Of a DNA stretch of 64,000 nt, positions 7,974 through 61,047 are shown in pieces. This DNA is from Cyanidioschyzon merolae (Eukaryota). Each line of letters begins with the position of its first letter. The stretch's first letter is position 1. Where the stretch lies: assembly GCA_000091205.1 (NCBI GenBank), contig AP006485.2. One strand, 5' to 3'. The translations under genes were made by a program, and so were the position numbers. The notes beneath the pieces are model-generated. The model searched no databases, was not told the origin of the DNA, and saw only the letters and a list, made by a program, of their open reading frames with translations.

Positions 7974-8043
7974 TCACGCCCTTCTGTTACCGCACTATGC
8001 AGCCGTTTGAAGCAATATTGGCATAATAATACCTAAACCCTCA

Positions 8044-8603
8044 TCAGATACAAGCTGAACACTGAACTGTTCACTCACATCCTCTCTACCAGGTTTTCCG
8101 AGTATTTTACGTGGACAGCCCCGCCGTGCAACGAGCACCAACAACAGCTTACACATTCACGCACAGCTCAAGGATTCCCGATCGCCTCTTCAACGATAAT
8201 TACCCGACGTCATCGCTCGGCGGCATCCTCTCAAGCTTATGCCGAAATTCCACTGATCTTGTCACGCCAAAGAATAACCCATTCCGTTCTAGAGACAAAC
8301 CCTCATCCGCTCTTCGCTGCCGTCCACCATACACCGTTCCACTCCAGAATGATGCGCCTCACGGGGTCCGCGCCCTCGAGCGCAACCCGAACCGTTTAAA
8401 GGTCGACGCTAAGGCAGCCATGAGCACCCTTCGACTGCTGCCAGGGTGCCGGAGGGACGCAAGAGCCCAGCTCATAGAAAGCCGGATTTGGGGGCAGGAA
8501 CGAGGATTATGAACAGAAGCTGAAAGAGACCGGAAATGCTGGTTAGGATGGTAACGGGAAGCGATCCCAGCTGTAGAATGTGTGCCCAAGATAGGTGAGT
8601 GGA
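8044..8603 (+). repeat. R1 interspersed repeat, copy 3, variant A. It lies about 265 bp upstream of the Smr gene.
   Basis: Matches copy 1 at the variant positions. It ends GTGAGTGGACATGATCTATTTTTCTTCTGACACAG. Confidence 0.85.
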
Positions 8604-8868
8604 CATGATCTATTTTTCTTCTGACACAGTTGCAGCTGCTGCGCGAAAACAGCGCGTAAACAGAGTGGCCTCGCTTTCAAAGAGCTACGTCAGACACTGT
8701 GATTTTAGGCGCTCGATATCTTAGCGCATAACTTAAGCTTCATAAACTTAGTGGGTAACTGCACACGAGCGCAGTAGCGTGCCCACGTAGCAGCCTGCTG
8801 CAGGCACGAATAGTTCACGAGAGGCAGCGTTTGCTTCGAGTGCTCGCACAAACGAGGCGTCAGGCCTC

Positions 8869-9501
8869 ATGGGAGGCCGCCAAAGCAAACCGCACAGCAG
8901 CTCTCCGCCTGGAGCCAAGCAGCGACACACGGCACTGGAGCAGAGCTTGGTGCAACCTAGAGCCTACACAGACAATGAGTGGGACGAGGTTATTTCACGC
9001 GTTCGCGCTCACGAGCGGCAGCTATTCTCCAAGAAACAACAGCTCTTTGAGGCGGCAAGTACCGCATACAAAAAAGGACAGGGAGCAGAGGCAAAGCGGC
9101 TCTCTCGAACTGCTCATCAAACCGATGAGAAGTATCGGAGGGCACGTCAGGAAGCCTCGGTAACAATTTTGCACCTAAGGAACCATGGGAAACCTGCGGA
9201 TACTTTAGACCTACATGGCCAATATGTTGAGGAGGCTCTCTCGTTCACCAAACAACGACTCAAGGAGCTGCGGAATATAAACAATGCGCAACGTACATCG
9301 AGTCTGTTGATCATAACAGGTGCCGGACACCATAGCGAAGACGGTCGAGCGAAAATTCGGCCGGCAGTACTGAATTTTCTCCGGAAGAAGGGATATTCCT
9401 TCAAAGAAGAAGGTCCTGGGGCTTTCAGGGTTCATTTGGGCGCGGAAAGCACAGAGGGATGCTTCGCGTCTCTACTTCGGATGCTGGGCCTGAAAAAGTG
9501 A
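8869..9501 (+). CDS. Smr-domain protein (DUF1771 + Smr) with an N-terminal MGxxxS myristoylation-type start
   Basis: ...TLDLHGQYVEEALSFTKQRLKEL...LLIITGAGHHS...IRPAVLNFL is the Smr domain. The upstream helical DUF1771-like region is AYKKGQGAEAKRLS. The protein starts MGGRQSK. Confidence 0.65.
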   Translation: MGGRQSKPHSSSPPGAKQRHTALEQSLVQPRAYTDNEWDEVISRVRAHERQLFSKKQQLFEAASTAYKKGQGAEAKRLSRTAHQTDEKYRRARQEASVTILHLRNHGKPADTLDLHGQYVEEALSFTKQRLKELRNINNAQRTSSLLIITGAGHHSEDGRAKIRPAVLNFLRKKGYSFKEEGPGAFRVHLGAESTEGCFASLLRMLGLKK

Positions 9502-9532
9502 AGCCTATGGCAGTCATCATCAATGGACCTGG

Positions 9533-10282
9533 TCAGTGCATATCCTGGTGAACGGATGGATTCAATGTCAGGTCATATGCCATGTCGGGATCCTCAGACT
9601 CGTGGTCGCCGCAAGGAACGAAAGCAGGTATCGCAGTTAGCTCTTCTCGAGAGCTCGCGTACGAACGCCCTACTGTGAAACCTCTACACACGATGAAACT
9701 CTCAAGGCTTGAATTACGGCTCGAACGGGGTTTTGCGATATACAGTTCCCGAAAATAGGGACGTATACGAGCATAGAGAAGCGCCGACTCATAGCCGCGA
9801 AATATTTTTGCGACGAACTTACCGCCTTCCGCAAGCATGGCTACGCAGAAACGGAGAGCAGCTTGAACAAGTTCGCACTGCACGTATTCGTCAAGATCGT
9901 GCAGACCTGTAACGTCAGGGGCACCGTCGCTAAGTACCAGATCAGCTCTGCGACCACCGAGTGCGCAACGAACACGCTCCAGCGTATCTTCCTGAGTGAT
10001 GTCTCCTTGCAGGGTACAGACTCCTGGAATGGGAGCTATGTCCTGCAGATCAACAGCAACGGCACAGTTTCCCTCCGAAGCGCTCTCTGGCAGACGGAGC
10101 TTCTGACTTACAACCTGCGACCAACTTCCAGGGGCTGCACAAAGATCAGCAACGGTGCGAACACCGGTAAAAATCCCAAACTCATCGTCCAGCTGAAGTA
10201 GCTTGAAAGCGGAACGAGCCCGGAAGCCTTCCTCTTTTGCTTTTCGGTAGTAAACATCCCGCTTATCCTTACTTCTCGTCAT
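9533..10282 (-). CDS. FtsJ/Trm7-type 2'-O-ribose RNA methyltransferase
   Basis: MTRSKDKRDVYYRKAKEEGFRARSAFKLLQLDDEFGIF...VADLCAAPGSWSQV is the FtsJ SAM-binding signature. The track ORF starts at a TTG at 10312, so the start was moved to the ATG whose complement is at 10280-10282. Confidence 0.8.
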   Translation of the reverse strand: MTRSKDKRDVYYRKAKEEGFRARSAFKLLQLDDEFGIFTGVRTVADLCAAPGSWSQVVSQKLRLPESASEGNCAVAVDLQDIAPIPGVCTLQGDITQEDTLERVRCALGGRRADLVLSDGAPDVTGLHDLDEYVQCELVQAALRFCVAMLAEGGKFVAKIFRGYESALLYARIRPYFRELYIAKPRSSRNSSLESFIVCRGFTVGRSYASSREELTAIPAFVPCGDHESEDPDMAYDLTLNPSVHQDMH

Positions 10283-11374
10283 ACTATGAGCTGCGTGTGC
10301 AGGACTCGACAAGTAGGTCTACAACCAGAGCATTTGTTTGAATGTGCTGCGTCGCAGCCTTGCGACAGATGAGAAATTTCAGCTCTTCGTTGCAGGTTCC
10401 GCCGTGTCATGTCGTCTGTTGCATCTGCTATCCGATAAGCAGTGCATCTCATCATCACAGCTGGCCCAACCAGAATCGTTGAAGTTGCGCTACTCACTAG
10501 GAACGAAGTGCTCATACGAGTAGCCACGTCCCAGCTGACAAGCATTTATGGCACAGCCTTCGTGACTCATTCCTTTGTCCCCTACAAGTGCTTGAACATT
10601 ATCGCCTTAAGATGAAAAAAACACAAACGCGCCTGTGAAATACTGGTACCCTTCCTGAACCTGTGAGTTGGACACATATCGAGAGTTAGTCCACTGACGG
10701 TTGGGCACTCTGCCTCTGATACATAGTGGTGAATTGAACGATTCACCGCTCCGCGCCTTGGAACGCAGGAATAGCGCAGTAGCTATCCCTTTCCATCTTA
10801 TTTTTAGGTGCATGGGCGCGTGTTTAGTGCTAGAGCAGCTCAACAGCGTCAATTCGATACGAACAAGGTAGTCGCACTTCAGGGGTCATAAAGGTCTGTA
10901 AGGTTCGCGGTACTGTCGCGACGGCACTCGAGGTACGCTTTGACATCGTAGAGCTGCAAAGCCTAATCGTTGGTTCGAAGGGATAGCTAAATCGGTGTAG
11001 TACTCCATCACGATACGCAGCTCCAAATATACTCGCTAGACGGCTACAGTTGCGTCGTTGTAGCGGCATTGCAGGCCAACACAGGCAGTTCAGCATCAAT
11101 ATACACCGTCTTTGCGAGCAAGGCGGACTTGTCTTACCTACCGGCACGGATGCTTCGAGGCTTTGTGGTAATGCTGGGCGTTTCGGCATCTGCGACGAAG
11201 CGCCGATATGCACCGGGGGGCGTCGCCGCTTAGTAGAACAAATAAAGATTCAAATCTTGCACTCCACAGAACAATGCGTTGCACTAGCAGGTGATAAACT
11301 AGCGGAGTTGCAGGCTGGAACCGAAAGCTTCCATGAAAAATATGCGAATCAGAACGAAACGCTATACCTGTACC

Positions 11375-11933
11375 GGATCCAAACTGAACACTGAACTGTT
11401 CACTCACATCCTCTCTACCAGGTTTTCCGAGTATTTTTCGTGGACAGCCCCGCCGTGCAACGAGCACCAACAACAGCTTACACATTCATGCACAGCTCAA
11501 GGATTCCCGATCGCCTCTTCAACGATAATTACCCGACGTCATCGCTCGGCGGCATCCTCTCAAGCTTATGCCGAAACTCCACTGATCTTGTCACGCCAAA
11601 GAATAACCCATTCCGTTCTAGAGACAAACCCTCATCCGCTCTTCGCTGCCGTCCACCATACACCGTTCCACTCCAGAATGATGCGCCTCACGGAGTCCGC
11701 GCCCTCGAGCGCAACCCGAACCGTTTAAAGGTCGACGCTAAGGCAGCCATGAGCACCCTTCGACTGCTGCCAGGGTGCCGGAGGGACGCAAGAGCCCAGC
11801 TCATAGAAAGCCGGATTTGGGGGCAGGAACGAGGATTATGAACAGAAGCTGAAAGAGACCGGAAATGCTGGTGAGGATGGCAACGGGAAGCGATCCCAGC
11901 TGTAGAATGTGTGCCCAAAATAGGTGAGTGGAC
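11375..11933 (+). repeat. R1 interspersed repeat, copy 4, variant B. It lies about 40 bp upstream of a 93-aa ORF at 11971-12252.
   Basis: Same variant as copy 2. It ends GTGAGTGGACATGATCCTTTTTCTTCTGGCATCAG. Confidence 0.85.
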
Positions 11934-13272
11934 ATGATCCTTTTTCTTCTGGCATCAGAGTAGCCGGCTGATGTATGCGAGTCACCTTCGACCGCAACAA
12001 TTCCGATTTATGCAATGCTGTAAATGGAGCATGCATGAGCGACTGCAGTGGGAGCACCTATCAGTCGAGCAAGCGTTCTTCTTTAGAGCTTTTATGCAGC
12101 ACACGGGGCCTCTTTTGCTGATGACTGCTTCTGTCGGAGATCTTTTGAGCTGGGCTGAACCTGCACAGCGGGAACGTTTAGAGGAATGTTGCGCAGACCA
12201 TTACCCGGATTTTGAGACTAGCGTAGCTGCTCCAAATAGATGCCATTGGTGAATATTGTGTTCCAACTCAATTTCGTTTCAATTCCGCTGCGGAGTATAA
12301 CAGGAAATCGAAATCACTATGCAATGTATGGATTAGAGCGCAGACGAATTTCCTAAAGGATGTATTCTTTATCGAGCAGTGCGATGAGGACTGCACTCCT
12401 TGTTCAGGTTATTCATGCCCCAGTACTCAGATGCCAGGGAACACTGAAAGAAACGAGTAGATGCGCTTCAGGCAGAAAACCGATTCTCTCGAAGACTGCT
12501 TGCAGGTCAATGGTAAGAAAAGACATGTTGATCACGTAATGGTAAGCAAAGCGCGACGACTGCAGACGCCACTGGCGTCTCTTTTTCTCAACAGCCTGTC
12601 CGCGTGGTCCTGCAAACACCGGGATGAAGTCCCAAAAAAGTCCCACTTCACTCACGGCCATCTTCCATCGAAATCGCAAAGACAGATTATCATGATATTC
12701 GCGATCCGCATGGAGCAGAGGAACGTCGATTTGTTTTCTCAGACGATGATAGTTCCTTCGGCAGAGGTAGTCCGAGCGTATACGTTGTTTCTCGGAGATG
12801 TGGCCTTTGTATGTAAGATCGAACTTGAAGTGAACTCCGACATCATCTGTTCTAGCTGCAGTGGATTCTTTTAGAGGCCCCAACTTCGCTCATAGAGAAG
12901 GCTTATACAACAGCGTCCACGTTGTCGAATTATTCAAAACTTGTACTTGACTTCTGGGGACGTCCATCTTTTAGACTACCTGGCAAGTGGCCATTACCCT
13001 TGCGTTCGAGCTATTGCGGATTCTGTCCGTTTTGAACTGCCTTCTTTCTCTCTTTACACTTCGTTTTACAACCCTATCGAAGGAGTATTTTGTATCCAAA
13101 AACGCAATGATCGCTCCGTTGCGCGAACCGGCCAGGCGTTCAGAATGGTGGCACACTAGAGCACATTTCGTCTTCTCCCGCAAGTTCTTCTTGCCCCGGG
13201 GAAGTCCTCACCTGAACATATGAAGAAGTTCGTTCATTTTCAAATGTAATCTGGATAAGGGAAAGTAAGGGT

Positions 13273-18027: not shown

Positions 18028-18081
18028 AACGAAAATGTTCTGACCATACAGTGCATAAATACATCCACTTCCAAACGCCTC

Positions 18082-19337
18082 CGAGCCTCGTTTGACGGCC
18101 CCCGGCTACCTGCTTGAGCTTTCCCTTGAGCAAATCGAGCGTGAGAGGCTGCCCTACAAAATTTGACCGCCCCAGCTCCTCGGGGCTCGTATTCTGCACC
18201 ACACGTCGTCTGATATGGATGGACGCAATGAAGTCTCGGCTCTCGAACTCCACACGTTTATTGCCTCTGGTGGAACTCGCAATTGCAAGGATAGGTAGAC
18301 CTCGTGCACTCTGTGCCACTGCGGCTTCGTCATGCTCTCATTGCGCGAACACATTTCCCCACCTATCTCCCCTTTTCTTACCCTTCTTCTTCGTCACTTG
18401 CTCTTCTTCGCTCGATTGCCGGCGAGAAGAGGATTTTTCGTCCATCCCCGACTACCGAAGATAACCGCATTCCGGGGCCCACGAGTTGCGTATCGATACC
18501 GTTCCCTTGGAATTTTCGTTTCTTCAACTGAAGACACTGCTCTATGCCGTTAGGTGAGGACCTTCCCGCACCGAGCAGCACATGCGGAAGAAAGACAAAA
18601 TGCGCCCCGATGTGTCACCGTGCGCTGAATGCTTCAGCGATTCGCCCGGTGGAACGGTCATTAGGTCTCACGATAGAAAACATTCCGCCGATGCAGTTGG
18701 AACACGGAGCGCACGGAGGAATGAAAAGCAGCTTTGCCCCGAGAGAATCAGCAAAAGCTCGACCGCAAGGGTAATAATGAAATGTCACGCTGTCCAAGAG
18801 AAGAATATCGCCAGACGCCAGGGGAAAAGTCTTTTGTGATTTGACGAAGTGGTTGGTGCTGCTGTATGAGCCTTCTCTACGAGCGAAAACCGAGGCATCC
18901 AAATGAATCCACTCTAGCGAGAAGAGATTGGTCCGCGCTCTCTTCGGGTTCGATCGTGGATACATGGGGCTCCCTGCCCCGCGAATACCCATGTACATTC
19001 CGACCGATTCTTCTGGAACAAGTCTCATTGGCTGGAAAAATGAACCGACGTCCCTAAGGATCATACCGATTGAGACGTTCTAGGAACACTGTAGATGCGA
19101 TTTTGGTGCAAGATGGCCGTGACTGACGTTGGAACTTTTCTGCGATTGTACCCATCGTTTTCAGGATCAGACGAATTTGCTGTTAAGAAACAGAGATGCC
19201 CCAGGTGGCTTCGATTGAGGGTTTTACTTTCAGCAAAAGATTATCAATGATCCGTTTTCTACCATTTACAGAAACCAGTCCTTGAGAATGATAGTTTTTG
19301 AGCGCAGCTCGTATACTTGTTTCGTTCAGTGGCCCTC
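18082..19337. repeat. R2 repeat, copy 1 (1.26 kb). It is near-identical to 34093-35353.
   Basis: The ORF translations on both strands are identical apart from a few substitutions (IRSHDRKH/IRFHDRKH, VRPNDRS/VKPNDRS). The flanking sequences differ. Confidence 0.85.
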
Positions 19338-19545
19338 GACCATCTGGTTTCTGTGGTGTGACTGACCTTAATGTGGAAACCAGTCTTTCTTGCATTATTA
19401 TGTAAAGAATCTATTCTACAGGCGATTAATCTAAGATCTATGAGGTACGTTCGATAGTGACTTCGATCTCCCGCTAAATACCGCAGTAATTTGGAAAAGA
19501 ATTGAGCTAGAAGAGTCGAATAATATTACAAAAGCGCGCCACTGG

Positions 19546-21886: not shown

Positions 21887-22489
21887 ACCGAAGTCAGCAC
21901 TAAATGGAAAAGATCTACGCAGACTGACACCGGCGTACATTCTCGTGTTTGGGTTGCTTCCCAATGAAGTCCAAACCAGCCTTTGAAGTATTTTTCTCTA
22001 CATCCGCTTCCTTCTTGCTCGATCCTGGTACCGACTTTAAATACGCTTGTTTCACATACAACTCCAGTTTTGATGGTAGCAGCCGAAAGATGTTGATGGC
22101 AGTGTTAGGGTCCCTGTTTCGGTGCCTCCGCCTGTAGTCCCAGCATTTGATGCTCATATGGCATTTGCCATCTGCGTTGAGCTCGCCAGTTTTATAATCG
22201 CTGTACATTGCCTCGTTGCGCTCTTCGTGGATGTGAAACTATTCTGCGGTTAGGTGTTCCTATGCGTCCACCACAGCTCGCAATCCGTGGGCGGCCCTGT
22301 GGCGCTTGAATGCTTGCGTCAGCGTATGGTCCACGTCGTTGATGGGTACAGAAGGCTCTCCTCGGTGCCGTCCGCCAATTCCGCGCCCGATACCGTACCC
22401 AGCAATCAGGAGCTTTTTCCGCACGACAACCTCAACGAGTGTTCTGTCCGGCGCACACGCAAGTTTATGGTCTTATTTTTCGTAAGGGC
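21887..22489 (-). mobile_element. Fanzor/TnpB-like 3'-terminal fragment (copy b). It is a 5'-truncated duplicate of the element at 26489-27600.
   Basis: ORF 21915-22208 (-) reads ...ELNADGKCHMSIKCWDYRRRHRNRDPNTAINIFRLLPSK, a CxxC zinc finger plus RuvC-III. Just upstream on the - strand, LIAGYGIGRGIGG sits at the RuvC-II position and is separated by a stop codon. Homology with copy c ends at 22489. Confidence 0.55.
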
Positions 22490-25149: not shown

Positions 25150-26488
25150 AAAGGTATATCTGGTGGAATCAAGCGATACCTTCGCTCGTTATGTTAAAGC
25201 CCAACACAAAATTGACTGGTGCAGTTCTTGCTTGCGCTATTTCATCCAGAATGCGGTTGAAATCCGCAGCTGTGCATCCTTGGCATATCCGAGAGAGCCT
25301 GGCTGGAGACCCGTTTACGGTGCGTGAATTGTGTGGGTCTTATCAGGTGCATCGGTCGGAAGGTTTAGGTTCCCCAAATCAATCTTTCCTTTTTCCAATG
25401 TGAGTCATTGTTGTGTCACATGACTCGATTCTGTATCTTAAACACCTATCCATATTCAACTCTGGGTTGTCATTTCTGGATGCCGACTGATTGCGATAAA
25501 CATCCTCGCCAGGAGAAGGTTCCTGGGTTCCCGTAACAATTCTGTCGTTTGGATTTTCACGTATTCTAAACCGTATATCACTCATGCGAAATCTGGGAAG
25601 ATCGAAACTAAGAGCTCTATGCATTATGAGGCAAAAATTAGGCCATGTTGATCGTCCATAAAGGAAGCCGATGCACTTCTTGTATCATTCGCTGCTTGAA
25701 AATTGGTCGAAGAGTTCAACCTTCATTTTTGAGAGTGCATCATTCAGCGGGCGGTCATTCCGCAGTTTCGTTGCGTCACGGATTCGACGGATCGTTTGCG
25801 ATCCGTCGAATGGTATTCTTAGTGATGGAAACCATGAGCATGCCAGATCGTCTCAACTTGCTGAATGCGGAAGAATCATTTCTCTTTCAGATCAGAGAAC
25901 TTTCGAATTTATTTAACGTCGCCACCTCTAGAATCCCAGAGACTCGTGTGTTCGCGATTGACCTATCTGGCTGCCAGTTTTATTTATTCAGCTCATAAAT
26001 CTATGCAGCTGGCAAATGAGATGCCTTCCAATTGGCGAGATGGTCGCAAGCAATTGAGAATTGCGATGATATCTGTAAGCACTTTTGAGCTCTGTGGGTG
26101 TACGTATGAAATACCTCATTTGACGAGGATAGAGACGCACCACCGCATAACCTTGTGCGCTGTACAAGCCAGCACATTCTGCAGACCGTGATACCATCTG
26201 GCATGCGCTTTCTCATCGGAGTATTTAAGCTTCTGCCTGCAACAAAGTTTCGTTTTTTCTTCTGGGCCGCGTCCGCCAACGAAAGGAGACCACGACGAGA
26301 AATGTTGTCACGTTCGCATAGCGGGGAAGAGATGTTTGAACTCTGCGAAGATGCTTCATCGTGAATGATTTGATAAGTAGGAACTCTCTTAAATATACAC
26401 CTCTCACGGCGAGCGGATTCGACGTCTCTGCCCCAGACACCTGCAGAGCACGCAAGCAGCAGTCGCTGCGAACTGCTCGATCCATCAA

Positions 26489-27600
26489 AGTCAGCACTAA
26501 ATGGAAAAGATCCACGCAGACTGACACCGGCGTACATTCTCGTGTTTGGGTTGCTTCCCAATGAAGTCCAAACCAGCCTTTGAAGTATTTTTCTCTACAT
26601 CCGCTTCCTTCTTGCTCGATCCTGGTACCGACTTTAAATACGCTTGTTTCACATACAACTCCAGTTTTGATGGTAGCAGCCGAAAGATGTTGATGGCAGT
26701 GTTAGGGTCCCTGTTTCGGTGCCTCCGCCTGTAGTCCCAGCATTTGATGCTCATATGGCATTTGCCATCTGCGTTGAGCTCGCCAGTTTTATAATCGCTG
26801 TACATTGCCTCGTTGCGCTCTTCGTGGATGTGAAACTATTCTGCGGTTAGGTGTTCCTATGCGTCCACCACAGCTCGCAATCCGTGGGCGGCCCTGTGGC
26901 GCTTGAATGCTTGCGTCAGCGTATGGTCCACGTCGTTGATGGGTACAGAAGGCTCTCCTCGGTGCCGTCCGCCAATTCCGCGCCCGATACCGTACCCAGC
27001 AATCAGGAGCTTTTTCCGCACGACAACCTCAACGAGTGTTCTGTCCGGCGCACACGCAAGTTTATGGTCTTATTTTTCGTAAGGGCTCTGTGGAAAGCGG
27101 TGTCGTCCTTGATAAAGCGAGTACCGGAAGGAAAATCATCAAATTCGAAGATCAAGTCTGGAAGTTTCGACCCGAGAACGCTCTCTTTATGCAACCTGGC
27201 GACGCATTCTCCTGTGAAAGTGACTGCCACGATGACTGGAGTCCATCTCAAAGACCCTTTTCCAAGCACACGGCAGAGACGAGGGCCCCTTGGGGCATAC
27301 TCCGTGGTGCGTGTCATGCTGCAGGCGAATGCTGTTTCGTCGATGACCGCAAAAGAGTGGCGGGATTTGTCCCTCGAACGGGATCGATTATCAGAAGTGA
27401 CAAGTTCGGTGAACGCTCTGCATGATGTTGTGAGCAAGTCGTCAAAGGACTAGGTTGCGTGCTTTTCCTCACCAATCCAACCGCGCGAATTGCTGCACCC
27501 ACGAGATGACCTGGAACAGAGTGATCAACAACTTGAAGAGCGCCTGGTTTGAGCATGCTGCGCATGAGGAAATGAGAAGAGTGGAGAATTATACGTCTGC
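26489..27600 (-). mobile_element. Fanzor/TnpB-like nuclease pseudogene (copy c). It is more complete than copy b and is frameshifted.
   Basis: ORF 27314-27565 (-) has ...LSLLIIDPVRGTNPATLL, an IDPG-type RuvC-I. ORF 27003-27437 (-) continues in another frame and ends ...ALTKNKTINLRVRRTEHSLRLSCGKSS, as in copy b. ORF 26497-26805 (-) has the same zinc finger plus NRDPNTAINIFRL RuvC-III. Sequence identity with copy b spans 26489-27088. Confidence 0.55.
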
Positions 27601-28054
27601 ACTGAATAATGAGGTTGCTTATGTTCTTTTACGAACCATTGCTCGAGTGCTCTGCGAATCATCTTGATTGCGGCAAGGTAAAGAATTCCAGCGGCAAATA
27701 GTTGATGGAGCCACTTCGGAAAGACGACAGAGAATTCTAGAGCTACTTATGAATCCGTGCATCCTTATGGCTGCACTTTGAATGTCACGGCTGTACATCT
27801 AACAGAGGTTTGGAAAGATATCGAGAGGAAAAAGCTCCATCTAGTTCAGTGCTCCATGTTGATCTGACATGGGCGTCGTCGTCGAATGAACTCGTATCAC
27901 CGCTGTGCGCGTATCGGGGCCCGTGACTACGCGAGCTCGGGTTCCGCGCCGGCGAAGTTCAGACCGCGAGCTCCGTATTGGTTAATCCATCTTCGAGAGC
28001 CGCGACAAAGAAAGCTTTTCCAGGATAACTTTTGAGGCCGAATCTCGTACAGAA

Positions 28055-33119: not shown

Positions 33120-34092
33120 AGCGGAGATTACAGTGGAATGAAAAGCAGGCCAACGTCAGAGTCAGCCCCGCAATACTTGACCGTCTTTGAGTGCTGGAAA
33201 GCGACTTTGCCGTTGGGCATGATAGAAGAATGTGCGACAGTGAAGCCACTCAGTAGCTCTACGATGGATGAGGCTTTGAACGATTCGGTCTTTTGGGCGA
33301 TTTGTGGTCGACTAGAGGATCGAATCGCAGCCAGGGCTGATGTTTTCGGAGTTCTCGTGCGTGCCTCCTGTGCGATTCGTATTGTCGACTCTTCGAATGC
33401 CCGTGTACAAGTCCACCATATCTCCCGAACAATGTTCATCAAGTGAGACGAACACAAGTCCGTCCAGCTATAAGCGTTCGCGTCCTATTGGGAAACCCGC
33501 AGTGTGTTGTCGAACGAACGATAGAGACCCATGGAAGCGTGCTCTTTTCTTTGTCCACCCAAGTCTCATCCCCTTCGGTTGTCTCAACAATACGGAAACT
33601 TCACATCCTGGGGATCCGTGGTTGGTACCCCCTGGAGAGCGTACGAAGTGGAATAGATTGACAAGGAGACAGCCCCGTACACGGAGCAGAATAAGTCCTT
33701 TTTCGCGTGCAGGACGCTCATGAAAAGGACGACAGGGAAGGTGGTTCATCCGCCTGCAGAACATAGAATGACAGACATGAACAAATAAGGTGTTTTGGCG
33801 AGCAATCTGCTATAGCGTACTATATTTCTGCGGCCTTTCTTCATCTTACAGAAAAAATTCTTCTCGTTCGATACCTGCGAAAGAAGCTAACCAAAAACAA
33901 AAAGTGTTTGCTCTTCCAAGTGTGCTGCAATTCACTGCTTTAACTGCGGCGCATATCGAGAATCGAGGTCCTATTTCATTGCATGGCATATGACTATATT
34001 TTACAGCACTGAATAGCGCTGTCGTAGATGATCATAAAGAAACGATAAACGTTTCAAGAGGATATAATGTATTCATATATCTATTCATAGGC

Positions 34093-35353
34093 GACTCCGA
34101 GCCTCGTTTGACGGCCCCCGGCTACCTGCTTGAGCTTTCCCTTGAGCAAATCGAGCGTGAGAGGCTGCCCTACAAAATTTGACCGCCCCAGCTCCTCGGG
34201 GCTCGTATTCTGCACCACACGTCGTCTGATATGGATGGACGCAATGAAGTCTCGGCTCTCGAACTCCACACGTTTATTGCCTCTGGTGGAACTCGCAATT
34301 GCAAGGATAGGTAGACCTCGTGCACTCTGTGCCACTGCGGCTTCGTCATGCTCTCATTGCGCGAACACATTTCCCCACCTATCTCCCCTTTTCTTACCCT
34401 TCTTCTTCGTCACTTGCTCTTCTTCGCTCGATTGCCGGCGAGAAGAGGATTTTTCGTCCATCCCCGACTACCGAAGATAACCGCATTCCGGGGCCCACGA
34501 GTTGCGTATCGATACCGTTCCCTTGGAATTTTCGTTTCTTCAACTGAAGACACTGGTCTATGCCGTTAGGTGAGGACCTTCCCGCACCGAGCAGCACATG
34601 CGGAAGAAAGACAAAATGCGCCCCGATGTGTCACCGTGCGCTGAATGCTTCAGCGATTCGCCCGGTGGAACGGTCATTAGGTTTCACGATAGAAAACATT
34701 CCGCCGATGCAGTTGGAACACGGAGCGCACGGAGGAATGAAAAGCAGCTTTGCCCCGAGAGAATCAGCAAAAGCTCGACCGCAAGGGTAATAATGAAATG
34801 TCACGCTGTCCAAGAGAAGAATATCGCCAGACGCCAGGGGAAAAGTCTTTTGTGATTTGACGAAGTGGTTGGTGCTGCTGTATGAGCCTTCTCTACGAGC
34901 GAAAACCGAGGCATCCAAATGAATCCACTCTAGCGAGAAGAGATTGGTCCGCGCTCTCTTCGGGTTCGATCGTGGATACATGGGGCTCCCTGCCCCGCGA
35001 ATACCCATGTACATTCCGACCGATTCTTCTGGAACAAGTCTCATTGGCTGGAAAAATGAACCGACGTCCCTAAGGATCATACCGATTGAGACGTTCTAGG
35101 AACACTGTAGATGCGATTTTGGTGCAAGATGGCCGTGACTGACGTTGGAACTTTTCTGCGATTGTACCCATCGTTTTCAGGATCAGACGAATTTGCTGTT
35201 AAGAAACAGAGATGCCCCAGGTGGCTTCGATTGAGGGTTTTACTTTCAGCAAAAGATGATCAATGATCCGTTTTCTACTATTTACAGAAACCAGTCCTTG
35301 AGAATAATAGTTTTTGAGCGCAGCTCGTATACTTGTTTCGTTCAGTGGCCCTC
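34093..35353. repeat. R2 repeat, copy 2 (1.26 kb). It is near-identical to 18082-19337.
   Basis: See copy 1. The identical ORF set lies at 34130-35080. Confidence 0.85.
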
Positions 35354-35739
35354 AGTTATCTGAGTACTGCGTTATGACTTTCCTGCAGGAGCCATGCAGT
35401 CCTCTATGCACTGTTCATAAAAAATATATGTGCAATAGGCAACTTGTGTACGATCTATGCGGTAAATTGCATAGTAGGTTCGATATCCTGCCATGCACAG
35501 CAGCGCAGGTGAAATATAATCGAGGTGAAAGACCATAACGATCTGGCGTCAAGGACGCGAATGCAGTAGCCCTCACGAACGCTTTAGATTTTCGCTGTGG
35601 ATTTCCAGTGCAAAGTCTGCTGCACATAGCCACCTAAACTTTCACCTGGAGGTGCGACCTTCTCTCGAGGAGCAGGCCTTTAGAGTGCATCCGCAAGCCA
35701 AGCGGGCACCATGGCCGAGTTTCGCTCTGTAGGCCATTC

Positions 35740-38132: not shown

Positions 38133-38845
38133 TCGTTGCATGTTGTTTCCTGGTTTTGTACGGCTTGCTGGAAAGCGTCTCGGGCCGCTTGTGTCCAGTT
38201 GTGATGATGTAAATAGAATCGAATTCATCACGTTCTATACCGAGGCCGCTGCAGAGCTCGTGAATAACTCTCAGACCGAAATGATGAGCAAATGTGAATG
38301 GAGCTTTGTGATGCCGCTAAAATATCTGCATTATAAGCTAGGAGCGGATGCTGAAGTGGCTATGTCCTTATCTTCTAAATGCATCGAACCTGGCGGGTAG
38401 CGCACCTCTGTAAGCTGATGTTCAACACTCGAGCGGTCCGGGTTCCGGCTCCAAAGAGACCCCTATTTGGGTCCAGTGATTGCGAAAAGTCTTTTTCGAA
38501 GCAGAGCATTTTCGTCAGCAGGAGTGAAGCTTGTTTTCCTGCTCTGAACAAACATGCTGCGCATCCAAACAACCATGATGAAGCGCACGTCGGTGAGTTC
38601 CTGGTCGATGAGGATGCCACGAACGAATATTTTTCAAAGTCTGTCTCGATATAACATTCTTTACAAGATCTGGCTGTACGCTCGCTCACGGAATGCGATG
38701 TTTCTCATTTGGTTCTCTTGGTTAAATTCACAATTCGAATCATACACTCATTTGAGAATAAATGTTAGAATGCCTCTTTGAAGGGATTACATTCTCAAGT
38801 TCGAGTCTGTTCCCAATGTCATCAGAATTAGCCTTTGCGGCCTTA

Positions 38846-39100
38846 TCTGCGACCGCTCCTATTATTCTTTGTTATCTTTGACTTGGAATACGACGGTCTC
38901 TCGTTTCCTCTTAGTCCCGCTGTCAGTGGTCGAAAGATGTTGATGGCAGCATTGAATTCCCGATTTCTGAGTTTCCAGCCGCTGGCGACGCATTTGATGC
39001 AAAAACAGTAGTTGCCATCGACGCACGGCTTGCCATTTTCATCTTTTTTGTATGCAGCCTCTTTGCGCCCTCTCGCAGCGGTGACACTTGGTTGTCCTCA
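38846..39100 (-). mobile_element. Fanzor/TnpB-like C-terminal remnant (copy d)
   Basis: Manual - strand translation gives ...KKDENGKPCVDGNYCFCIKCVASGWKLRNREFNAAINIFRPLTAGLRGNERPSYSKSKITKNNRSGRR*. This is a CxC…CxxC zinc finger plus RuvC-III. A stop codon lies immediately upstream. Confidence 0.5.
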
Positions 39101-39324
39101 GGTGTTCCTAAATATCACCCACAGCCTCTCATCCGTGGACCGCCTCGTGCTCCGTGAACGCTTGGTTTAGCGCTCGGCACATACACTTGACGGATACAGA
39201 TGGCTACTTTCGATATCCTCCACCGATTCCAGCTGCGGTGCTGTGCCCTACGATCACGTGCCTCTTACAGGTGATCTCCTCCATGAGTACCGATTCTGCT
39301 GGAGGCGCGAGTCCGCAGTTTTCC

Positions 39325-39440
39325 ATTCTATTGACAATTAGTGTAACGCTATGCTGTCCATGATGAATCGTGAATTGGAACCATCCTATTGACAAGTAGT
39401 GTAACGCGATGCTCTCTATGATGAATATTGATTTGGAAGG
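39325..39440. repeat. Two-unit tandem repeat of about 58 bp
   Basis: TTCTATTGACAATTAGTGTAACGCTATGCTGTCCATGATGAATCGTGAATTGGAACCATCC is followed by TATTGACAAGTAGTGTAACGCGATGCTCTCTATGATGAATATTGATTTGGAAGG. Confidence 0.7.
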
Positions 39441-40168
39441 TTAATTCTACTGATGCAGCATATGTCGACACATTTTAATGTGACCATGCCACTTTCGCGC
39501 AAGGCGATAAAGTGCACTCCAAACGAGAACATCTCTTTGGTGACTTAAGTCAGAGTCTATGATTCTTTTCAATGTAAACAGTACATGGAGGCCCCTGTGA
39601 GCATGTCCAGTGAGACGCATCATCTCGTTCTCGCATCTCTTTCCGCCGAGGACCACCAAGAGGGCAGGAAGTGTCTTCAGAACGGAATCGATGATTTGAG
39701 AAAGAAATATTCAGCGAAGTTGAGCTATAAGTCAATAAAGAAGTCGCCTCTGGGCTTCGCTGAATTTTCATGCTCGTTAACTCAGCAGCGCTAATTGCTC
39801 TGCTAGTGAGTTACCTTGAATCAGAAAGATCGAATACACAAAGAATGCAAGATTTGAGCATGCGACACGTTATTAACGGAGAATCTTGGAGGCTTCCATT
39901 CATGAACTTGATGATACTGTCGTTTATTCTACGAATTCTTGTTCGAGAACTTCCCGTATCATCTTGTTAACGTCAGAGGAACGAATTCCAGCGAAACAGC
40001 ATCTGAGGAGGCACACCGAAAAGGCGATCGAGAATCCTAAAGCTACGTATGAATCTTTAAACCCTTATTGCTGCCTTTCGAATGTCAAGATTATACGTCG
40101 AAATTTATTCTCAAAAACCCGAAAGCCAGGAACAGAACAAGCAGTTCAGTGTCCCATTTTTATCCACC

Positions 40169-44194: not shown

Positions 44195-45508
44195 ATCCAC
44201 AGCAAGAAGCTTGCGTTTCTCAGGATCTCATAGAAACGCCAGTCGTCTCGTATAAAATTGAGGTTCAACGACTTGCTAGCAAAATGGTAACCTGGGGTCC
44301 ACTCGCACGCTCCAACAACGAGTGATGCTCCGTTCACGGAGTCGCGCGACTTTCTCAAGCTTGACAAACGCAGCGATCGAAAACCTGGATTGGCTTTCCG
44401 CCAAAGGCTGTTTGCGGGTTGTTTCCAGTCTCGCTCCGTTCAAATACACTCCCATACAATGCACAGACAGGTACCTTACGTGCTCTCCGGCGCCGAGCGA
44501 GCACGAAGCGTAGTCCACTGTGCACGGTAAGATGTGCTCCGGACGATGGTCAGTTTATAACCTCGGATTCGGATCATCAGATACACACCATTTGGTGTCG
44601 ATCGTGCACCGTTACACTTATACGATTTGCCGTTCTGCCGTCAATCGACTACGACTGGTTCACACAGCAACGCATATCGCAGATGAGTGCCGCTATGGCA
44701 GTCTATATACTAGCCTCCAGCATCCGGTACACTATCGTGGAGAGTGAGTGCTCATTGAGAAACTCAGGTTCATAGGGAGAACGGCTGCTATAGAGATTGC
44801 GTAAACTTCTCCAAATCACCCGAGACATGCAGCTCTACATCAAGTGGCCCCATTAAATCGCATTCGCGTGACAGAGCTTGCAACGGAAAGACTGTCGAGC
44901 AGGCATATCGTTCGTGCGGGCTTCGGTGTGACGCAATGTGATGAGGCACTCGTTTATGAAAGGAGTGCAGGTTGTGCAAGCCCGAGCTACACATTCTTCA
45001 ACATGCGCCACGCATGTTGTGGGATCATCGAAGGTTCTTCGCTTTGGAAAGCTTTCGAACAAAGTAACTCTAGAGAGTAGAGAACGACGAGTGTTGATCC
45101 TCGCAAACGCCTCCGCAACACGATGGAACTGTTTTCATGAGTCAGCGTTCGCATGCTCTCAACATTGCAGGCATCTTCATGACAAGCTGTTACCATTGGA
45201 GGCGTCTTCGCCAATGTATATGATGCGGACATCAGATCCCATCTTAACACGACACTTGTATTGGTACTGCATGACAGTTCTGCTTTCGTGCAAAGACCGG
45301 AGCGGCACATCCGGCATTGCAGCAGGCATTAAGATTACGCTCTGCAACCAGGCGCGCTTTTAATCTATCCAGCGTCTAGCTCTCCGAGTGAAACTGCCTA
45401 GCGATTTCAGGTGCCCTGGTGCAATTTTGAAAAGGGCCTCATCGTATCGGAATAAAATGGATTTGGCCCTCTGACTCTCGCGTAGATACGGGAAGCAATA
45501 CCACCTCT

Positions 45509-46556
45509 TCCGGTCTCTTCCAGCTTCTCTTCATCATCCTCGTTCCTGCCCCCAAATCCGGCTTTCTATGAGCTGGGCTCTTGCGTCCCTCCGGCACCCT
45601 GGCAGCAGTCGAAGGATGCTCGTGGCTGCTTTAGCGTCGACCTTTAAACGGTTCGAATCGTGCTCGATGCATCCCATACACGGATGGCAGTCGGAAACGG
45701 CAACGCGCTCGCCGCTGCCTCTTCTCCGTCAACATCCCCGATGCGCTCTTCGCACCAGTGGCACATGGCTCAGGTCAGGTGTCCCTGTACGCCACCCGCT
45801 CCGAGCACATCATCCGCGGAGCGGCTGTGGCGCCTCCACGCTCACGCCAGTGTATCGTGCATGCCGTCGGCGGGCACGGAAGCCTCACCTCGATGCCGTC
45901 CGCGAGTGCTGCCCCCGCCGCGGTCCCCGACAATCACGAGCTTCTCCTGGGCCATCAGCTCGGCGAGTACGCTGTACACTGGGCGTGCAGGCACACGCTC
46001 TTCGATTCCTTCCGGGGGATCCGCGCAAGGCGGTGCTGCGCCTCACGAAACAAGCACCCGTGATGTGGCATCCGGGGCGGACGCCATGTCGGACTGTTTC
46101 GGTCTGTGTGCGCTCCCTTCGTGCCGAGCGGTAACGCATGCTCGGCTCGGAGCGAACGCTGCGATGACTAGAGTCGCAGCTGAGGGCGCATGCCGATGCA
46201 GACAGACGAGAGGGGAGCGCTGGAGCACGCGCACCCCGTGGGGCGCATCATTCTGGTGTGGAACGGTGCATCGCTGACGGCAGCGAAGAGCGGATGAGGG
46301 TTTGTCTCTAGAACGGAGTGGGTTATTCTTTGGCGTGACAAGATCAGTGGAATTTCGGCATAAGCTTGAGAGGATGCCGCCGAGCGATGACGTCGGGTAA
46401 TTATCGTTGAAGAGGCGATCGGGGATCCTTGAGCTGTGCATGAATGTGTAAGCTGTTGTTGGTGCTCGTTGCACGGCGGGGCTGTCCACGTAAAATACTC
46501 GGAAATCCTGGTAGAAAGGATGTGAGTGAACAGTTCAATGTTCAGTTTGGATCTGA
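45509..46556 (-). repeat. R1 repeat, copy 5, inverted. It carries a ~570-bp GC-rich insertion/replacement at 45656-46225.
   Basis: 45509-45655 and 46226-46556 are the reverse complement of the R1 consensus. Between them, 14 bp of R1 are replaced by 570 bp of ~68% GC sequence with no clean ORF. Confidence 0.8.
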
Positions 46557-47008
46557 TGAGGGGCTGGGGTCTCCCATCTGGCGTCCGGCAATATTTGCGC
46601 TTCTGGGAGCTTCAGGTTCCATGCAGTGCTCTCGCACCATCCATAAATCGGTGCATATGCGCTTGGCACGGCTCTGCAGCGTGCCTGCAGGCGCAAGCGA
46701 CCGCGATACTGCATGACTCTAGACGCCCTCAGCTGGTACGAGAAAACATATTGGAAATTTTTAACTGTGGAAGCATGAAATTCCTCCCGGAGAGCATACA
46801 CGAGGATTGGATATCACAGCGTGAATTTTCGCCCTGATACCGGCTATTGCAGCAAGATGTATTCGATCATCAACACAATGCATCAGTGACGATAATGCGC
46901 CTTCACTTAGACGATGCACCCAATGTTTCTCACCAGCTCCGCTAGACGATAAGAAGACGCTTCGAATGCAACGATCCAAGCCAGCGTGCTATAGCTCGAA
47001 TAATCGAC

Positions 47009-56956: not shown

Positions 56957-57639
56957 TTTTCGTTGTAAATCTTGATAATGCCGCGAATCGCCAAATAACT
57001 TTCACAGGAACCACCCTATGAACCACCCGAGCAGTGGAGAAGCTGACTTGCGAAAAAACGGGGTACGCGACGGATGTACAGCCGAGAGTCGTGGCTGCTT
57101 CGCAGGACGGCGAAAATCCGGACGTGGCTAAACGGGACAAAAATACCCTCAGCTGCGCTGCCTGTACGATAATGTATAAAAAGGACAAAACACCCACGGG
57201 TGCGCTGCCGATTTTGATGCTGAACATGGTAACCAATATCCTACGACCATGAAGTTTAAATTATTACCACATGCAGAGGTCTGCCAGCCTTTTCAACCGG
57301 ACCCCTGCCGCCGGTTTCAGCCTTACCTCGTATACTTCGATCCTGAGAGGTTCCCCACAAAGCTGGCTCGCGCCAGCTCCACGAGTGTCATATAAAGCAA
57401 CGCATATCGTCTGATATTGATGGCGGCGTCAAAGTACCGGCTCATGGACCCCATGCGTTTGTTGCGTCTGATGGGACTCGGCTCTACAAAGATTCCTTGA
57501 ATTCGTGCCGTCTTTGCCATCTGGTGCTCTGTCAGCTCTCCGTACTCATATATCACGGAAGCGCTCCGCTGCGTTTTGTCCGTCTGGACCTTCTGAAGTG
57601 TGCGCCCTAGGATATCCCTCGGATTTTTTAAAGTGAATG

Positions 57640-58250
57640 CACTTCTTTATAGCCTCAGGTGAGGACCTTCGCAGGGGAGAAGGACTTGCTGAAGAACGAC
57701 GAAATGTGCCCCAGTGTGTCACCGTGTGCTGAGCGCTTCAGCGAATCGCCCAGAGCAGCGATCCTTACGTTTCATGATAGAAAACATCCGTTCGATGGAA
57801 ATGAACCATGGAGTGTACGCAGGAATGAAAAGCAGCTCTACCCCGGTGGAATCAGCACAATGCTCGAAAGCAAGGGGAATGTTCAAGTGCTATGTAGTGC
57901 AACAGAACGAAGTCGCCAGACGTCAGGAGCAACATCTTCAGTGATTCTACAAAAAGGTGCTGTTGTATTAGGCTTCAATGCGGGCGAACCCGAGGCCGCT
58001 ACATGAATCCACTGCAGGTAGAACAGATGATGTCGTCTTTCTTTTCCAAATCGATCGCACGTACAATGGGCTCTCTACCCGGCGAGTGGCCATGTACGCT
58101 CCGACCGTTTCGTCCAAAGCAAGTCTCATCGACTGAGAAATCAAACGGATATCCCTGTGCTTCTTACCGATTGCAACGTTCCATGAACGCTGTACGTGCG
58201 TTTCGGTTCATGATGGCCGTGTGTGAACTAGGGCTCTGTTTTTTGTGACT
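57640..58250. repeat. R2-related repeat, a diverged third copy
   Basis: It aligns to 18541-19100 and 34557-35116, sharing ggtgaggacctt…gtgtcaccgtg.gctga..gcttcagcga.tcgccc…atgatagaaaacat…ggaatgaaaagcagct…catgaatccact…. Identity is roughly 70%. Confidence 0.6.
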
Positions 58251-58789
58251 GTATCCGGGTATTTGCAGGACCACACAGACAAGGTGTTGAGCAACAGAGA
58301 CGCCCGTGATGGCTGCGATCCTCGCTTTTGCCTTCCGTGAGATGCTCAACGTGTCGTTTTCAACCATTGAATGCAAGCAGTTTTGAGGATTCGGTTTTTG
58401 GCTTGGATCGCATTTACTTTTCTGTGTTCCTCTCGCATCTGAGTACTGGGATATGACAGACCTGAAGGGGGAATGGAGTCCACCTTGCACTGTTCAGTGA
58501 AGAATATACATCCTGCAAGCAACTCATCTGTGCTCAATACGATAAATTGCATCCTGATTTCGATCTTCTGCTTTAAGCTACAAAAACAGCATTCGAATGC
58601 TTTCAGCGGTGGTCAAACAAAATTGAGTTGAAAGACTATAAAATGGAACAGTGAACATTTTATGCTGTTCCTGCTCTACAATCCTTTCCGAAATTTTTTC
58701 AGGTCGACGAACTCGACCTTCGAAGTGCGACAACAAAGAGTTACGAATCCACACCTAATTTAACGATTCTCGATTGTCTCTTCAGCGTG

Positions 58790-59893
58790 ACTCCTTTGAT
58801 GTTTTTCAGTTGGAATTCGCCAGGTCACCGGAATGAAATTGAGTTGCCACGCAATCGAGCAAGAATTCATAAAAAGCAGAAGTCATTACAAAATCTATGC
58901 AAACAATTCTCCACTCCGCTCCTTTTTTTCATTCCGGACGCTCGAATCATGCCCAGTTCCGATCTTTCTGTTTCAAGGCAATTTGCTGGTGCAGCAAGAA
59001 TTGCAGCTGGATTGACATTGAAAACAAACTTCGATGTCATCCCTTCAAGACTTTTTCACAACCTCAAGCCGAAAGCTCACTGAACTTAGTACGCAAAATA
59101 ATCGATGCCGTTCGAGAGCCAAGTCGCACTCTTTTCATCGAAATCGGCGAAACGGCGTTCTACAGCAGCTAGATACCTCTCACAGGACTTGCTCACACAG
59201 GCTCCTGTCTCTTCTGTTTTCTTAGAGAAGCATCATGGCCTCGGGCTTTAGCTATTACCGCAATCGTCTCGAGGAAACACTGCCTCATCGTTTTCCAACA
59301 ACGGAGCGCCGACAGTTTGAAACTTCTCGACTTGTTCTTGACCTGAATAATCGTACGGGTACTTGTTTCATCATGGATAATATCGCGTTCCACAAATCCT
59401 GTATTGAACAGAACAGCGTGCGCCTGCTTGTACAGCGGACACAGTACTTGCCAAGGGGATCGCCAGGAGGATGCCCATGCTCTTATGGGACGGCTCCGAG
59501 CGCGGAAACGGAAGCGAGCATCGAGAGCTCTCTTCCGTCTCCGTCGAGGGCACGAACCGAATTCTGGAGCAAGCTGTCACGCGCCATAGTGCAGTTATCC
59601 AGGGAAAGGTTGGGTATTCTGTGGGAATATCTGACTACAGCAAACAGTCACCGCCGCGAAACGCCCACCTAGGCTTCACAAAAAATGCGAATGCCAAGCG
59701 AGGCGTAGATTGCAAATGCCACGTGTGTATCACATGCTCCGATAGCAGCAAGAAACCGAGAGATAGGGATTTTAATGGTGCCATCAACATCTTTCGACTA
59801 CAGACAACGGAGCTGGAGGGAAGCGAGACACGAGCATATTTCATGCTGGAGATGAGTGGCACGAAAAACGGAAAAAATCGAAGAACACATTAG
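58790..59893 (+). mobile_element. Fanzor/TnpB-like nuclease, C-terminal half (copy e). It is frameshifted and probably a pseudogene.
   Basis: ORF 59471-59893 reads ...AVIQGKVGYSVGISDYSKQSPPRNAHLGF...KRGVDCKCHVCITCSDSSKKPRDRDFNGAINIFRLQT. This gives a RuvC-II-like stretch, a CxC…CxxC zinc finger and a canonical RDxNGAINI RuvC-III. The overlapping ORF 59235-59672, in another frame, has ...RLVLDLNNRTGTC..., a possible RuvC-I. Confidence 0.55.
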
Positions 59894-61047
59894 CAGAAAT
59901 GCTACTAATGATGACAATTGGAAAGCCCAAAACTTTAATGCATACACTCGCGATAGACAAGTGGACTCGTTCCATTTTATTCAGGCATGAGTATATGCGC
60001 CATATCCTGCGGCCGTGCGTTTTGCTTAGAAAGACTGCGGGCGATTAAATTATTATTAAAGGTCATCCTTCAACAAAAGAGAACTGGATGAGCAACCTGC
60101 CTCGTCACTTGGGCCTCTCTGCTCGCTTAGTCGCCTCTTCAAATGGAGCGCGTCACCAGAACATATTATGGTCGAAGATCGCGGTGCTTGCCGACGTCCA
60201 GTCGGAGCGTGTACATTTGTACGAGAGGCTCAGCATGTGCCTTTTGGGGCCCTTGCGCTTTCGGCGCAGGATATTTGCAGAGCAGCGCCATTCTGAAGCA
60301 GCCCTGACGTACTTCGGAGCGCGAGCCCAGCGATGAACGCCCCCAAGCGAGGCATCTGATAACTGTCGTATATATATTCAACATGCCACGAAACAATGAA
60401 TAGATGATGGACGTCTCCGAGCGATACATCTCACAATTGCCGCATGTAAGTTTGAGCTGCGAATGAGGTTCGCCGGCGAGCGCAAGCGGCGCTCGTCCAC
60501 GAGAACGTCCCCGTCCGTAGCGGAAGAAGCAGCGCGCCTCTTTCTGAGCTGGTCGGACGCATACAGCTTCAATACACCGGCAGGTTGCATCGCAAAAGCG
60601 GCCCTCTTCCCGCTCGAGTACTGCTGAGGCGCCTGAAACGCCCGAGAAACCGGATGCTCGATGTTCCGCGTCGCAGGAAAATGTGTCGTTCTTTAGATTG
60701 AGCCGCTATTCCTAATCAGGATGCAGGATCGGGTCTCGTGGAACGTGACGACCTCTATAAAGGAGCAGAGGTATCTTACTTGCTTATTGTCTCCGTTTAT
60801 GCATCCAGAGTAAGCGCTTTTCAGAGTCGATGGCTCGTGGTAGATCCGGCAAATTCGCTGTCGGCACTTGACACGGCGTTTCTGAACTACGGCAGACAGT
60901 GGCAGGTCAGATGTTGTTTGGATTCGGATTGACCAGTCTGATCGAAACTAGGGCATACGAGCGCTAACGTACTGGATCCTCTCACTTTGGATAGCGTCTA
61001 GTTTATGCTGAGATCCACCAGTGGGTTGAAAGACTAGAGAGCACGTC

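Follow-up and report, generated by a model that had tools for sequence, protein, structure and literature searches.

A GC-rich block in a family of decayed DNA elements is most likely the remnant core of a Fanzor1-type gene

Diverse DNA transposons have captured Fanzor1 genes, internal deletions being frequent among them, and the Fanzor1 families CRe-1, 2 and 3 were described as 'coupled with internal deletions' (Bao & Jurka 2013, PMC3627910). The single red-algal Fanzor1 family in that study is CMe-1A of Cyanidioschyzon merolae, a family of ~3-kb elements with about 150 copies that are ~80% identical to their consensus; some of these copies have intact ORFs, and the family was reported to be without terminal inverted repeats (PMC3627910). 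The 5′ 635 bp of CMe-1A also form a separate element of ~70 copies, TE-N2_CMe (PMC3627910).

To judge from the published descriptions, CMe-1A with TE-N2_CMe is the closest precedent for the repeat family analyzed here, which occupies several positions in a stretch of 64,000 nucleotides (the window). Both are multi-copy, old and diverged, carry Fanzor1 sequences and have no recognisable transposase, and each is accompanied by a short element of ~0.6 kb that is a part of the longer one and was amplified alone. The differences, compared by description, are in size and organization. The window elements are ~1.4 kb long and hold only the C-terminal ~155 Fanzor residues, whereas CMe-1A is ~3 kb. The short window element, R1, has both ends and no middle, in contrast to TE-N2_CMe, which corresponds to the 5′ 635 bp of CMe-1A. 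Finally, one long window copy has 12-bp terminal inverted repeats, a feature reported to be lacking in CMe-1A. Decay of a Fanzor-bearing transposon by internal deletion is an already known kind of process (PMC3627910), and the nested deletion series proposed below would add to the red-algal case of CMe-1A.

The window contains long intron-less eukaryotic genes in same-strand clusters, among them genes for ClpB/HSP100, Nup84/107, RPN7, Sec20 and a PLAA-like WD40 protein. The RPN7 protein encoded next to the element of interest has 100% matches only in JGI and Logan environmental contigs, and its best named relative, from Cyanidiococcus yangmingshanensis, is 49% identical. The host is accordingly most likely a cyanidiophyte-like red alga, present in JGI samples Ga0078972, Ga0080006 and Ga0506614. 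A trypanosomatid host with R1 as SIRE/VIPER, suggested by the gene clusters and the 51% GC content, was discarded on the strength of this RPN7 match. Exact-protein look-ups of three neighbouring ORFs gave no match, perhaps owing to a misplaced start codon or to differences between strains.

R1 is present as four direct plus-strand copies of about 587 bp that are 97-98% identical to one another. A single inverted copy, here called the composite element, is interrupted by a GC-rich block. The block, its host element and the other family members are as follows.

45668-46211, minus strand: GC-rich block, 544 bp, 66% GC, an internal segment absent from the R1 copies.
45420-46568, minus strand: composite element, which holds the block; it lacks a 245-nt 5′ segment and has kept the block.
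45420-45667, minus strand: 3′ arm of the composite; 45500-45667 is 92% identical to the 3′ part of R1.
46212-46568, minus strand: 5′ arm of the composite, 94-96% identical to the 5′ part of R1.
1561-2147, plus strand: R1a, a 587-bp putative internal-deletion derivative without the 245-nt segment and the 544-nt block; junction at 1899-1918.
4993-5589, plus strand: R1b, the same putative deletion derivative as R1a; junction at 5331-5350.
8030-8626, plus strand: R1c, the same putative deletion derivative as R1a; junction at 8368-8387.
11359-11954, plus strand: R1d, the same putative deletion derivative as R1a; junction at 11697-11716.
26484-27876, minus strand: c26, a long-form copy of ~1.39 kb with a block homologue (53% GC) and the 245-nt segment.
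21889-22488, minus strand: c21, a partial copy without a 5′ arm; it duplicates 599 bp of c26 at its 3′ side (segmental duplication, 99.8% identity).
38777-40166, minus strand: c38, the most decayed long-form copy, with a block homologue (47.5% GC) and a 58-nt internal tandem duplication.
58638-59980, plus strand: c59, a long-form copy of 1343 bp with a block homologue (52% GC) and 12-bp terminal inverted repeats.
Metagenome contigs, outside the window: a long-form locus termed L020-type (L016, L020, L021 and L024), with a block homologue (62% GC).

The first-pass annotation had described a 570-bp segment of ~68% GC at 45656-46225, set in the only inverted R1 copy and replacing 14 bp of the repeat. 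The segment is real and so is its placement: the composite arm 45500-45667 is the reverse complement of R1c 8376-8543 (92% identity), and the arm 46212-46562 that of R1c 8038-8388 (94-96%). The part that does not belong to R1 is shorter than proposed, at 544 bp, and the GC content was overestimated, being 66% for the block and 65.6% for the 570-bp interval. Nor is any R1 sequence replaced: a stretch of 8-13 nt from R1 (8376-8388) can be aligned at either side of the block. The sharp compositional break is borne out. Across the 64 kb, 570-nt stretches have a mean GC content of 51.0% (sd 3.5%); the richest of all (45681-46250) reaches 66.8% and the second-richest 59.6%, and the GC content of the block lies ~4.5 sd above the window mean. 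As the annotation also held, no convincing ORF is present: none of the six frames of the block contains an intact ORF, and the long stop-free runs in all of them are expected at such a GC content. Neither terminal inverted repeats nor any other ends of its own mark the block.

The arrangement of block and R1 is real and recurs in independent environmental assemblies. Contig L025 (Ga0078972) is colinear with window positions 54937-45169 at 99.3% identity and crosses both block junctions, and the left junction is also spanned by contigs L001 and L002 (99.7-99.8% identity); the structure is therefore not an assembly artefact.

Searching the window with the block alone (nhmmer), along the lines of the same-genome check for repetitiveness that the annotation had proposed, returned four full-length but diverged homologues, at 26741-27274 (E 1e-38), 59209-59736 (E 1.6e-27), 22144-22488 and 38996-39373 (the weakest match having E 3e-15). 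The block is not unique, and its composition is not ordinary, contrary to the null explanation offered with the original observation. All block homologues found lie within elements of the R1/composite family. When each R1 arm was searched alone, it matched the sequences that directly flank the block homologues of c26, c38 and c59. In the multiple alignment, the 544-nt block is present in the composite, c26, c38, c59 and L020 and is missing from the four R1 copies only, and the 245-nt segment is present in c26, c38 and c59 and missing from the composite and all R1 copies. Because the block has a counterpart in four other independent copies, there too enclosed by sequences homologous to the two arms, we conclude with good confidence that the block represents the ancestral state and that R1 is an internal-deletion derivative. 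The shared loss of the 245-nt segment suggests that the composite and R1 are sister lineages, with a second deletion, of 544 nt, giving rise to R1.

The family's relationship to Fanzor1 emerges from the strand on which R1 reads directly (the window minus strand at the block). On this strand, the copies have decayed peptides in common, such as C..C....RD.N.AINIFRL. In tblastx comparisons among the copies, all frames score alike and the coding frame is not selectable by conservation, which indicates neutral decay. Single decayed fragments matched nothing relevant in Pfam, NCBIfam or the PDB. An unedited plurality DNA consensus of four copies, by comparison, restores a single nearly open frame of ~450 codons that runs unbroken from one arm through the block into the other. 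The sole Pfam match of this consensus is PF07282, the Cas12f1-like/TnpB zinc-ribbon (TNB) domain, at E 0.031; a protein-level consensus, one residue of which was guessed, scores 27.5 bits against a cut-off of 26.3. PF07282 is also the sole Pfam match of c38 and of P0006, the intact C-terminal half of a real protein that was retrieved by the consensus search at E 1.1e-24 together with P0007, another decayed copy.

P0006 has 200 relatives at E<=1e-3, many of them 550-900 aa long and matching it at their C-terminal part. In nine of ten long relatives PF07282 is the only Pfam family, and in six it exceeds the curated cut-off. The alignment of intact relatives contains three invariant acidic residues, D in G.DPGR, E in VWE..TTK.C..C and D in RNRD.NAA.NIL. 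A profile of the relatives matches the solved structures 8GKH (S. punctatus; E 3.7e-18), 9CF0 (P. parasitica Fanzor1; E 5e-18) and 9CER (G. theta Fanzor1; E 6.6e-11), followed by weaker matches to a TnpB-like protein and Cas12f; P0007, P0009 and P0033 searched against the PDB returned nothing. In hhalign comparisons, this profile (A4, composed of 25 relatives) aligns with the last ~155 residues of the unedited consensus (probability 99.6%, E 3e-24) and also with the block's own unedited single-frame minus-strand translation (probability 94.4%, E 9.4e-8). The Fanzor assignment rests on the consensus and on the chain through P0006. It makes it highly probable that the block is the remnant C-terminal core of a dead Fanzor1-type gene (TnpB-like, with RuvC and zinc-ribbon elements). 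By the same token, the family very probably consists of DNA elements that lack a transposase and have a decayed Fanzor1-type nuclease gene as their 3′ third.

The individual motifs of this gene can be located in the composite.

45845-45943, minus strand: remnant peptide KLVIVGDRGGGSTRGRHRGEASVPADGMHDTLA (also given as KLVIVGDRGGGSTRGRHRGEASVP), corresponding to the family motif GYG.G....KGE.sVPVK upstream of RuvC-II; columns 531-575 of profile A4.
45743-45796, minus strand: remnant GGVQGHLT*AMCHWCEER, the counterpart of V.VWE..TTK.C..C in the family (RuvC-II Glu and first zinc-ribbon CxxC).
45669-45689, minus strand: remnant CHPCMGC of the second zinc-ribbon CxxC, in a shifted frame at the 3′ edge of the block.
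45603-45650, minus strand: RuvC-III remnant RLKVDAKAATSILRLL, against RNRDFNAAINIFRLL in other copies, in the 3′ arm common to R1.

The motifs GYG..KGE..P.K, V.E..TSK.C..C and C..C..RD.NAA.NI of the solved Fanzor1 structures (8GKH, 9CF0, 9CER) are common to the family of the window consensus. In contrast to those proteins, the window copies are pseudogenes that lack the N-terminal two thirds, including RuvC-I. Every window copy has stops or frameshifts, and none combines an intact D-E-D triad with an open frame. In the composite, VWEH of RuvC-II has become VQGH, so that Gly stands in place of the catalytic Glu, which all aligned intact relatives have; the same remnant also contains a stop. Three in-frame stops fall within the block (46043-46045, 45842-45844 and 45770-45772). 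With these stops, a frameshift and the loss of the Glu, the composite gene is a non-functional pseudogene.

No same-strand frame of the element's 5′ ~750 nt resembles the Fanzor profile, and neither the N-terminal WED/REC domains nor RuvC-I (G.DPGR in the relatives) were found there; the 5′ arm of the composite likewise has no detectable Fanzor similarity. The long forms would therefore be either truncated derivatives of something larger or composed in part of unrelated sequence.

The family members can be arranged in a nested deletion series, in which the long form (~1.35-1.4 kb) would have given rise to the composite by loss of 245 nt and to R1 by loss of a further 544 nt. In the composite, a short and imperfect direct repeat brackets the block (GCTCCAGCGC at one end, CATCGAGCAC at the other), and R1 reads CCTCGAGCGC at the deletion junction. 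We infer that R1 originated in one deletion, with these repeats, of the form (C)TC(C/G)AGC(G/A)C, as its end points. The repeats and the R1 junction fit a slippage or microhomology deletion with an approximate breakpoint, and such a deletion would also be the reason why the R1 arms overlap at the block. In the bases adjacent to the junction, R1 and the composite differ more than the 5-8% by which they diverge elsewhere.

Alternatively, the 8-13 nt of R1 that align on either side might be a degenerate target-site duplication, in which case the block would be an unrelated transposable element that had jumped into an uninterrupted inverted R1. We consider this very improbable. The four other independent copies, which are roughly equidistant, carry a homologue at the same position, and repeated insertion at one site is not credible; the block, moreover, lacks termini of its own, and the consensus reading frame is continuous across arm, block and arm.

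Following the deletion that we favor as the origin of R1, the shortened form would have multiplied as a MITE-like element, small and non-autonomous, with its mobilisation presumably provided in trans. R1 has both ends of the longer element and lacks the internal segment of its longer relatives. In this it resembles MITE-type derivatives such as those of CRe-1, 2 and 3, being likewise short (587 bp), with both ends kept, the middle gone and several copies present. Copy c59 begins and ends with a perfect terminal inverted repeat of 12 bp (58638-58649 and 59969-59980; ATAAAATGGAAC / GTTCCATTTTAT), and the 3′ end of R1 coincides with this repeat; unlike in MITE-type derivatives, the 5′ terminal inverted repeat of R1 is degenerate, and no clear target-site duplication is readable from the R1 flanks. 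No intact or autonomous copy from the host organism was found. The repeat R2, which encodes a DDE_3 transposase, was considered as an autonomous partner and rejected, as it lacks the terminal inverted-repeat motif of the c59/R1 family.

Did the composite retain its block, or did it regain it? The composite might be a deleted R1 copy that recovered the 544-nt core when a relative with a block served as donor in ectopic gene conversion; the block would then have been put in by homologous recombination and not by transposition. We regard this scenario as unlikely. A scan of metagenomes with a block-specific degenerate 26-mer recovered only the composite, c59 and L020-type loci and one further contig, L019; a hit in L023 was discarded as a chance match from a GC-rich organism. 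In L019, a block 98% identical to that of the composite is joined to the unique flank of the R1a locus, and the diagnostic bases form a mosaic, R1-type in the distal arms and composite-type beside both junctions. If real, this mosaic is just the kind of conversion proposed, at a different R1 locus. Between strains, moreover, the composite arms differ by 2.6% and 1.8%, the block by 0.55% and the unique flanks by 0-0.2%, and this greater variation of the arms fits ongoing exchange with R1 paralogues. L019 may, however, be a real conversion, a deletion polymorphism or an assembler chimera formed through shared repeat k-mers; the chimera explains it equally well, and the divergence of its block from that of the composite (1.84%) equals the neutral divergence of the flanks (1.68%). 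Conversion also has no known donor, the nearest other blocks being 53-60% identical. Furthermore, the 3′ tail of the composite differs from that of R1, its last ~80 nt being divergent and including a 22-nt deletion, and the overall divergence of 5-8% between the composite and R1 fits a sister lineage better.

A further reading, which we consider distinctly unlikely, would have R1 and the composite not as inert remains but as non-autonomous Fanzor1-derived elements that an intact Fanzor1 or a transposase encoded elsewhere in the genome still moves or maintains in trans, with the 3′ arm serving as a guide-RNA module and with frequent ectopic gene conversion, of which the L019 mosaic, if real, would be an instance, driving strand-symmetric GC enrichment of the core. 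RNAalifold applied to six 3′ arms, which are few and decayed sequences, predicted no persuasive helix, the energy being -4.9 kcal/mol and the covariation term 0.17; in contrast to Fanzor1 systems, no omega-RNA-like structure is detectable in the 3′ arms of the window copies.

We next consider the base composition of the block, taking it as an ancestral segment retained by the composite. Its GC fraction is 0.66 in the composite, 0.62 in the L020-type locus, 0.53 in c26, 0.52 in c59 and 0.475 in c38, and the arms of the composite and R1 have values of 0.50-0.56. As a proxy for the ancestor, we used the majority base (at least three of five) of five roughly equidistant copies, which assumes a star-like tree. 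The GC content of this proxy is 57.7% in the block region against 39.5%, 51.3% and 50.0% in three arm segments. On this reconstruction, the high GC content of the block is shown to be partly inherited, because the block would already have been the GC-richest part of the ancestral element.

The remainder of the excess arose in particular lineages. In the composite block, A/T-to-G/C substitutions number 58 (0.29 per A/T site) against 17 in the opposite direction (0.06 per G/C site). The L020-type lineage also moved GC-ward (0.22 vs 0.11), and the lineages of c26, c59 and c38, which are old and solitary copies, acquired AT-ward substitutions. Strand-specific editing of the ADAR or APOBEC type is rejected, as A>G and T>C changes are equally frequent in the composite block (23 each). 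Substitutions in the composite are distributed over the codon positions as 41/31/33 (p = 0.55), and no lineage has a codon-position bias, which disposes of the idea that the composite stayed coding longer; the shift therefore reflects a neutral bias and not prolonged coding constraint. Taken together, the substitution counts show the remaining GC excess as what appears to be a lineage-specific, strand-symmetric and neutral drift towards GC. Polarising the GC changes with L016 gave no clear direction. As to the cause of the drift, our guess, and the leading candidate, is GC-biased gene conversion between members of a subfamily that was active until recently.

Nothing but the difference in composition between block and flanks speaks for an origin of the block in rDNA, in an organelle or in a recent transfer from a bacterium or virus, an option that had been raised at first pass and that we judge practically untenable. 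Rfam has nothing in the region, either at the gathering score or at E<=1, and nucleotide homologues of the block occur at four other places in the same window. The GC content is raised at all three codon positions (0.735/0.591/0.646 vs ~0.60/0.45/0.52 in host genes) with the rank order of host genes, and the observed/expected CpG ratio is host-like (1.13 in the block vs 1.09 in the host). Among the origins suggested in the first-pass annotation, then, neither a nested element nor rDNA, organellar or foreign DNA is borne out, and a 'variable cargo region of R1' came closest. We regard the GC island as explained by ordinary transposon decay, and it should not be followed up as foreign or horizontally acquired DNA.

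Two dead lineages of the family have thus drifted GC-ward and three AT-ward within the same genome, a pattern that bears on the small question of GC-biased gene conversion among repeats.

The R1-type arms of the composite element (45420-46568, minus strand) differ more between strains than the GC-rich block that they enclose. Against the environmental contig L025, the arms differ by 2.6% (46212-46562) and 1.8% (45500-45667), compared with 0.55% for the block and 0-0.2% for the unique intergenic flanks. This excess divergence suggests either exchange between the arms and R1 paralogues or the mixing of repeat reads during assembly. A second environmental contig, L019 (Ga0080006_1144272), shows a mosaic pattern of diagnostic bases: its positions 1-2368 align with both 45508-46457 and 1907-3484 of the window, joining a block-bearing, composite-type element to unique sequence beside the R1a locus. 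L019 represents either a between-strain polymorphism, generated by ectopic gene conversion or deletion, or an assembler chimera.

All members of the R1 subfamily (five of five; within 1561-11954, and at 45420-46568) are intergenic and share the orientation of the neighbouring genes, although with n = 5 the pattern is not statistically compelling. Four consecutive intergenic regions hold four of the five, at a spacing of 3.0-3.4 kb. Among the long copies, orientation follows no such rule.

The 3' arm of c26, together with ~345 nt of its block homologue, makes up a 599-bp segmental duplication of 99.8% identity (21891-22489 and 26488-27086, 4.6 kb apart), which arose long after the element did. 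A 58-nt tandem duplication (86% identity) lies at 39323-39438 within c38, the copy in which decay has gone furthest. One more long-form copy of the family, located outside the window, was found in four samples at 99% identity (L016; L020, 11732-13104; L021, 118-1566; L024). A 25-nt tandem repeat in the 5' arm differs in unit number among these four versions, with the peptide reading ...GARLLPVHGCSAPARPW...

The window also contains another dispersed repeat family, R2, with copies of ~1-1.4 kb that are 66-96% identical:

12254-13244, R2 copy
18076-19475, R2 copy
34092-35537, R2 copy
57298-58572, R2 copy

The sole Pfam match of the R2 ORF at 34631-35080 (minus strand) is PF13358 DDE_3 (E 1.6e-4, below the cut-off), a Tc1/mariner-IS630-type transposase. 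The R2 copies are DDE transposons in decay. The Fanzor-derived elements R1d and c59 are each adjoined by an R2 copy; the R2 copies lack the terminal inverted-repeat motif of the Fanzor-derived element.

The genes of the window have no introns and are arranged in same-strand clusters. RPN7, the neighbour of the composite, is matched at 100% identity only in JGI and Logan environmental contigs, and its closest named relative is from the red alga Cyanidiococcus yangmingshanensis (49% identity).
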